From: Escherichia coli
GTDB lineage: Bacteria > Pseudomonadota > Gammaproteobacteria > Enterobacterales > Enterobacteriaceae
Assembly: GCF_003334405.1 (NCBI RefSeq)
Contig: NZ_QOWM01000007.1
DNA length: 64,000 nucleotides
Reading direction: 5' to 3' (one strand)
In this document: positions 57,436 to 57,612 of the stretch, in pieces
Numbering within the stretch: position 1 is the stretch's first letter
How the letters are laid out: the number at the start of each line of letters is the position of its first letter
Notes under the pieces: model-generated
What the model saw: the letters and a program-made list of their open reading frames with translations, nothing else
Databases searched by the model: none
Told to the model about the DNA's origin: nothing
Program-made: the position numbers and the translations under genes

Positions 57436-57612
57436 TGTGATATCAATCACATAAATATAGGGGGTAGAGAGGTAATTGACGTGACGTTCATCACAAAACG
57501 CTTGTGTAAAAAAGCAACAAGGCGGCGATTTTCGCTAAAAATGGCATTTAAATGTGAGTAGTGTCACATTTTTGTTTTGATGGTTTGTTGAATCTTTGTG
57601 ATCTGAATCACA
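57436..57612. promoter_or_regulatory. mtl promoter region with four TGTGA-N6-TCACA CRP-type palindromes
   Basis: TGTGATATCAATCACA (57436-57451), GTGACGTTCATCACA (57481-57495, imperfect), TGTGAGTAGTGTCACA (57553-57568), TGTGATCTGAATCACA (57597-57612), all 140-320 bp upstream of mtlA; the mtl promoter is known to carry multiple CRP sites. Confidence 0.7.

Follow-up and report, generated by a model that had tools for sequence, protein, structure and literature searches.

Palindromes between mtlA and yibI of Escherichia coli as probable sites CRP2 to CRP5 of the mtlADR operator

The closest described system is the operator of the mannitol operon, mtlADR, in E. coli K-12 (Ramseier and Saier, 1995; Lee et al., 2026). 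Five footprinted CRP sites are reported for mtl (Ramseier and Saier, 1995, as cited in later work). The recent account in NAR (Lee et al., 2026; PMC13421365) places CRP1 to CRP5 at centres of -262.5, -219.5, -175.5, -102.5 and -58.5 relative to the mtlA transcription start, with distances of 43, 44, 73 and 44 bp between neighbours. There, CRP2 and CRP3 are described as having all 10 conserved bases, whereas CRP1 has 7 of 10 and is largely unoccupied. The same sequences are given as activator sites of mtlADR by RegulonDB, as reproduced in the supplement of a Genomic SELEX study (Shimada et al., 2011).

Binding of CRP to this region and its requirement for mtl expression are well documented. Both binding to the operator in electrophoretic mobility shift assays (EMSA) and transcription of mtl need cAMP-CRP, and when CRP2, CRP4 or CRP5 is replaced in the chromosome, mtlD is no longer expressed and the cells fail to grow on mannitol (Lee et al., 2026; PMC13421365). 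In the same experiments, replacement of CRP3 has a slight effect and replacement of CRP1 has none, the strain behaving like the wild type. In Genomic SELEX the spacer between yibI and mtlA was the second most abundant class of CRP clones, with 38 clones (Shimada et al., 2011), and occupancy of the spacer by CRP in vivo is recorded by ChIP-seq in ETEC H10407, including a peak with the CRP5 sequence (Haycocks et al., 2015). Two further observations are that mtlA and mtlD are both among 305 genes expressed more highly in the wild type than in a cyaA mutant in LB, and that PhyloScan ranked the mtlA/yibI region first.

The repressor of the operon, MtlR, is recruited in an unusual manner. MtlR has no DNA-binding domain and by itself does not shift the mtl operator in EMSA; a supershift is seen only on DNA bearing a pair of CRP dimers at a spacing of 43-46 bp, the best being 44-45 bp (Lee et al., 2026; PMC13421365). 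A malK fragment acquires the ability to bind MtlR once its sites are moved from 34 to 44 bp apart, as does the CRP3-CRP4 interval when shortened from 73 to 44 bp. [quoted passage not shown] Since 2026, mtl has been the defining case of a repressor that lacks a DNA-binding domain and recognizes its operator through the geometry of two CRP dimers.

Other regulatory regions resemble this operator in part. At malEp/malKp there are likewise multiple CRP sites between divergent operons, together with MalT, and this region also ranks high in CRP SELEX. Both mal promoters use a shared nucleoprotein complex, whereas at mtl/yibI dependence has been demonstrated for the mtl side alone; moreover, MtlR is not recruited to the malK sites, whose spacing is 34 bp, in contrast to the 44-bp pairs of mtl (Lee et al., 2026; PMC13421365). 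In CytR-CRP systems such as deoP2, as in mtl, a repressor contacts two DNA-bound CRP dimers and spacing matters, but CytR binds DNA itself and sits between tandem CRP sites, whereas MtlR recognizes nothing but the arrangement of the paired CRP dimers. The pap operon shares with mtl the activation by CRP from far upstream, there from a site near -215 and in a manner dependent on helical phase, and it has been cited as a precedent for CRP2 to CRP4 (Lee et al., 2026; PMC13421365). However, pap uses a single distal site with interplay of Lrp and H-NS, whereas the four or five sites of mtl form an ordered array. Few CRP-dependent promoters in E. coli are as complex as that of mtl, and the locus is treated here as a model system rather than as a discovery.

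We analysed a 64-kb stretch of E. coli DNA, referred to as the window, in which a 536-bp spacer separates a 637-amino-acid open reading frame (ORF) on the minus strand from a pair of plus-strand ORFs of 120 and 378 amino acids. Names were taken from the RefSeq annotation of a genome with 6 differences from the window over 8536 positions, and the mtl reading frames were checked to be intact. The minus-strand ORF is mtlA (55379-57292), followed on the same strand by mtlD (54001-55149) and mtlR (53414-54001), the latter an intact frame of 195 amino acids annotated as the mannitol operon repressor, so that the mtlADR operon occupies 53414-57292. On the plus strand lie yibI (57829-58191), which encodes a DUF3302 protein, and yibH (58194-59330), which encodes an HlyD-family protein; both are divergent neighbours of mtlA. 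Chromosomes of the E. coli K-12 type (O16:H48) and of O157:H7 have a spacer 100% identical to this one. Of 5426 complete E. coli genomes, 5405 contain it. This identity and the RefSeq annotation establish the assignments of mtlA, yibI and yibH, and they bear out the original prediction, made from the letters of the window, that the region lies between mtlA and a divergent yibIH pair. Farther along, 3′ of yibH, the interval from about 59790 to 64000, as annotated in L001, holds an immunity gene of the Imm57 family with a frameshift, fragments of RHS cores interrupted by internal stops, and the sel1-repeat gene yibG; together they form the degraded end of the rhsA region.

A pattern search of the whole 64-kb window finds exact copies of TGTGANNNNNNTCACA at three places, 57436-57451, 57553-57568 and 57597-57612. 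When one mismatch is allowed the sole extra match is CGTGACGTTCATCACA at 57480-57495 (9 of 10), and apart from these four palindromes no 16-mer in the window has 9 or more of the 10 core bases. They fit inside 177 bp (57436-57612), with spacings of 44, 73 and 44 bp whether measured from start to start or from centre to centre. The prediction had described four TGTGA-N6-TCACA sites, three of them perfect, at an unusual density over about 180 bp, and this description holds. Of its spacings (45, 72 and 44 bp), the last is right and the first two are each off by one. Its array of four was also incomplete, in that a fifth, weaker site, TGTGATCTACAGCATG (7 of 10), lies at 57640-57655, 43 bp past the site at 57597. 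Short palindromes do arise at random, and a chance cluster devoid of function was considered. However, only 0.03 perfect TGTGA-N6-TCACA sites are expected in the window against the three observed, and none of 100 dinucleotide-preserving shuffles reached three, which together indicate that the palindromes are real and far from chance. With half-sites and spacing conserved in at least 46 species as well, the probability of a chance cluster is negligible.

The individual sites can be read directly against the published operator. The site at 57436-57451, TGTGATATCAATCACA, has a perfect core and is centred at -58.5 of the mtlA start; because the 43/44/73/44 spacings and the positions match those of Lee et al. 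(2026; PMC13421365), it is identified as CRP5, the promoter-proximal site, which is essential for mtl expression. CRP4 (57480-57495; 9 of 10) is centred at -102.5, the position also given by RegulonDB, 44 bp from CRP5, and is likewise essential. CRP3, TGTGAGTAGTGTCACA (57553-57568; 10 of 10), follows at -175.5, 73 bp from CRP4, and its mutation causes a slight drop in expression. The essential CRP2, TGTGATCTGAATCACA (57597-57612; 10 of 10), is centred at -219.5, 44 bp from CRP3. Finally, CRP1 (57640-57655) is centred at -262.5, 43 bp from CRP2; this weak site, dispensable for mtl expression, is placed at -261.5 by RegulonDB and also appears in the ETEC ChIP table.

Locus, sequence, spacings and core scores (10/9/10/10/7 from CRP5 to CRP1) are therefore those of the K-12 operator, and the four palindromes are CRP2 to CRP5 of the five-site cAMP-CRP operator of mtlADR, the scaffold for MtlR, with a probability that we put at roughly 0.96. 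The multi-CRP mtl promoter proposed in the original prediction agrees with both Lee et al. (2026; PMC13421365) and RegulonDB. The identity of the operator, the binding of CRP, the requirements for individual sites and the docking of MtlR are already known from the literature. What is added here is a map of the published sites in window coordinates, the conservation of the 44/73/44 layout across Enterobacterales, to within 1 bp in Vibrio and Aeromonas, and comparative evidence that the array is kept up for mtl and not for yibIH. CRP3 is polymorphic within E. coli: another genome of this species (L002) has the half-site TGAGA in place of TGTGA (9 of 10), which fits the finding that, among the four strong sites, CRP3 matters least.

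The original prediction had allowed that the palindromes might prove to be MtlR operators rather than CRP sites. Operators of MtlR, or of another specific regulator, would suit the position in the mtl control region, where older work assumed MtlR to bind operator-like repeats, and the paired 44-bp layout does resemble a repressor operator arrangement. However, MtlR alone does not shift this DNA and needs it to be occupied already by a pair of cAMP-CRP dimers at a spacing of 43-46 bp (Lee et al., 2026; PMC13421365), and the sites match the CRP consensus at 9 or 10 of 10 core positions and are bound by CRP in SELEX and ChIP. A reading in which these are not CRP sites is hardly credible, and because MtlR docks on pairs of CRP dimers the choice between CRP site and MtlR operator is a false one.

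Three intervals in the window fall within the range that permits MtlR recruitment, namely CRP5-CRP4 (44 bp), CRP3-CRP2 (44 bp) and CRP2-CRP1 (43 bp), while CRP4 and CRP3 are 73 bp apart. The pairs CRP4/CRP5 and CRP2/CRP3, or alternatively CRP1/CRP2, are the scaffold for docking of MtlR, with the repressor bridging two DNA-bound CRP dimers; mtlR itself belongs to the regulated operon. CRP2 and CRP3 are separated by a 28-bp spacer in which the hexamer AACAAA (minus strand; 57584-57589), 18 bp from the centre of CRP2, is almost invariant in 37 species, in contrast to the report that the spacers have no sequence similarity (Lee et al., 2026; PMC13421365). No counterpart of AACAAA was found in the CRP4-CRP5 spacer, where a conserved CCC(C)TAT run is present instead. 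The hexamer may play a part in bending, in Fis binding or in the geometry of MtlR.

To follow the array across species, an MtlA query was run against 100,044 species genomes, which gave 80 loci, and CRP-like sites 43-45, 72-74 and 43-45 bp apart were sought upstream of mtlA. This four-site pattern is present in 46 of the 80 loci, and in 37 of them the spacings are exactly 44/73/44. The exact arrays come from Escherichia, Citrobacter, Enterobacter, Cedecea, Pluralibacter, Serratia, Pantoea, Erwinia, Yersinia, Rahnella, Hafnia and Budvicia, and Providencia, Photorhabdus, Aeromonas, Vibrio and Photobacterium have variants that differ by 1 bp; the pattern is absent from all Firmicutes mtlA loci in the set. 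A gapless profile of 183 columns from the 37 species shows near-maximal information at the TGTGA and TCACA half-sites and low information in the N6 centres and between sites. An 11-species alignment gives the same picture, with conserved half-sites and a free N6, as does the more limited conservation analysis of Lee et al. (2026; PMC13421365). In only 10 of the 46 array loci does yibI adjoin mtlA; many of the other 36 have an upstream gene that is co-directional, or yibF, in its place. Retention of the array in these 36 loci indicates that it is maintained independently of yibI, and in the reading favoured here the array exists for mtl regulation, with yibIH as a mere neighbour.

The mtlA core promoter is assigned to 57385-57420 on the minus strand, its start being derived from the placement of CRP5 at -58.5 and its hexamers from our reading of the sequence. 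The implied start is position 57385; the start used in the literature goes back to old S1 mapping, as cited in later work. A -35 element, TGGACA (57420-57415), is followed after a 17-bp spacer by TG-c-CAGATT, an extended -10-like element (57400-57392), and these hexamers are invariant in 11 aligned species. The centre of CRP5, 57443.5, is shifted by 3 bp towards the promoter relative to -61.5, the canonical location of a class I site. In 22 loci the CRP5 core and TGGACA are separated by a constant 15 bp, so this departure from the usual register is apparently genuine and under selection. Bound at -58.5, -102.5, -175.5 and -219.5, cAMP-CRP activates the weak mtlA promoter, which is taken to be of class III. 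CRP5 most likely touches RNA polymerase and the upstream sites would be architectural; DNA looping or anti-silencing has been discussed for the action of the far-upstream sites (Lee et al., 2026; PMC13421365).

Several smaller features accompany this promoter. Between its -35 and -10 elements, a conserved stretch, AACCGATTCAGTG (57399-57411, minus strand), resembles a Cra (FruR) half-site, and a Cra site in the mtl promoter is mentioned by Lee et al. (2026; PMC13421365). The mtlA 5′ leader (57293-57384, minus strand), about 92-93 nt long, is very highly conserved in the alignment and contains a short hairpin, CGGGC-loop-GCCTG, with a loop that differs from species to species. By analogy with MtlS in Vibrio, this conservation may reflect post-transcriptional control in Enterobacteriaceae. 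A structured RNA or riboswitch was set aside, as neither the spacer nor the leader gave an Rfam match at E-values up to 1. An origin of the array from a repeat element was likewise rejected, the repeat search having returned the CRP sites matching one another and only a few short, weak pairs besides.

A standard promoter scan gave no canonical sigma-70 promoter for yibI on the plus strand, and no experimentally mapped yibI start was found in the literature. The putative promoter is TGGCGA-17-TATTGT (57727-57755, plus strand), ranked second in a looser hexamer scan, with a predicted start near 57762. The form TGGCG(A/G)-N17-TAnnnT recurs in 13 of 18 Enterobacteriaceae yibI loci, Kluyvera included, always with a spacer of 17 bp, and the putative promoter lies inside a 235-bp DFI clone from UTI89. 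Its poor -35 element, together with conservation that extends into the spacer (ATGGCGAAAA), suggests that a specific regulator may bind this block. The looser scan also gave TCTACA-19-TACAAT, which overlaps CRP1 and would place it at about -34.5; its -10 element is not conserved outside E. coli. A sigma-54 reading of TGGCGAGAATCGCG was rejected, its GG-to-GC spacing being 10 where 12 is required.

Could the array nevertheless be shared, with CRP at CRP1 and CRP2, and perhaps CRP3, activating or repressing the yibIH promoter directly? The original prediction suggested that yibIH might also be under cAMP-CRP control. The idea is already in the literature, through SELEX (Shimada et al., 2011) and ChIP-seq (Haycocks et al., 2015). 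For CRP sites between two divergent operons, Shimada et al. (2011) remark that regulation of both promoters is frequent; they point out that mtlA and yibI are both downstream of these sites, and they give a predicted target opposite mtlA. In ETEC, a ChIP-seq peak with CRP2 and CRP1 was assigned to yibI (Haycocks et al., 2015). The divergent arrangement of mtlA and yibIH is conserved in most Enterobacteriaceae that have yibIH, and CRP1, though dispensable for mtl, scores at least 7 of 10 in 8 of the 10 yibI-adjacent loci and reaches that score in the Enterobacteriaceae clade alone, being weak outside it. A predicted sigma-70 promoter, the TCTACA-19-TACAAT candidate, also faces yibI from a position over CRP1.

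Against these points, that candidate lacks a conserved -10 element, and CRP1 still scores 7-8 of 10 in 10 loci without yibIH. From the predicted start near 57762, CRP1 falls near -114.5 and CRP2 near -157.5, and neither position belongs to class I or class II. Across 12 species, the TGGCGA block lies between 120.5 and 126.5 bp from the centre of CRP2, a drift of 6 bp with no fixed helical register, whereas the spacings among the CRP sites are invariant. Neither yibI nor yibH is in the complete list of 305 genes higher in the wild type than in the cyaA mutant, a single data set from LB only. A urine-induced promoter-trap clone of UTI89 corresponds to 57685-57919 of the window and contains no CRP site, although this extent may be that of the sequencing read and not of the whole insert. 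The array also persists in the 36 loci without yibI, often beside a co-directional gene.

Kluyvera is the only natural experiment found, since yibI orthologues nearly all adjoin mtlA. In this single lineage (L087 and L088), mtlADR has been lost while yibIH and its proximal block are kept, and there is no CRP site of at least 8 of 10 within about 600 bp upstream; the CRP sites did not stay with yibIH. In both loci (1953-3000) the whole of mtlADR is gone from between yibL/yibT and yibI, and yibIH-yibF-selA is retained. The evidence as gathered leans against co-regulation, and we regard direct control of yibIH from the array as unlikely. No direct test of CRP control of yibIH was found in the literature; yibI is nowhere mentioned by Lee et al. 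(2026; PMC13421365), and a K. pneumoniae crp RNA-seq paper mentions mtlA and not yibI.

An extended form of this idea makes yibIH a second output of the mtl operator, in which CRP bound at CRP1, CRP2 and CRP3 would influence the yibI promoter over a distance of more than 110 bp. As CRP1/CRP2 and CRP2/CRP3 are MtlR-docking pairs, yibIH might then respond to MtlR and mannitol as well. We consider this improbable. If it were true, yibIH would be the first MtlR target outside mtlADR, and control by either CRP or MtlR would give a first regulatory handle on this poorly characterised DUF3302/HlyD-family pair, which has been linked to UPEC fitness in urine.

Two minor observations concern the sequences around the yibI block. 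An imperfect palindrome in the CRP4-CRP3 spacer, GCGATTTTCGC (57525-57540), and another in the yibI block, GCGAGAATCGC (57724-57739), are 81% complementary and have the form GCGA-N3-TCGC; GCGATTTTCGC is conserved only in Escherichia and Citrobacter, so their likeness is probably a coincidence. In a group formed by Leclercia, Enterobacter, Lelliottia, Raoultella and Huaxiibacter (L006, L008, L009, L031, L085, L090 and L093), about 125 bp are added between the yibI block and the ATG, relative to 57756-57828 of the window. The spacers of this group are 657-664 bp long, against 530-538 bp elsewhere, and the added sequence implies a much longer predicted yibI leader there.
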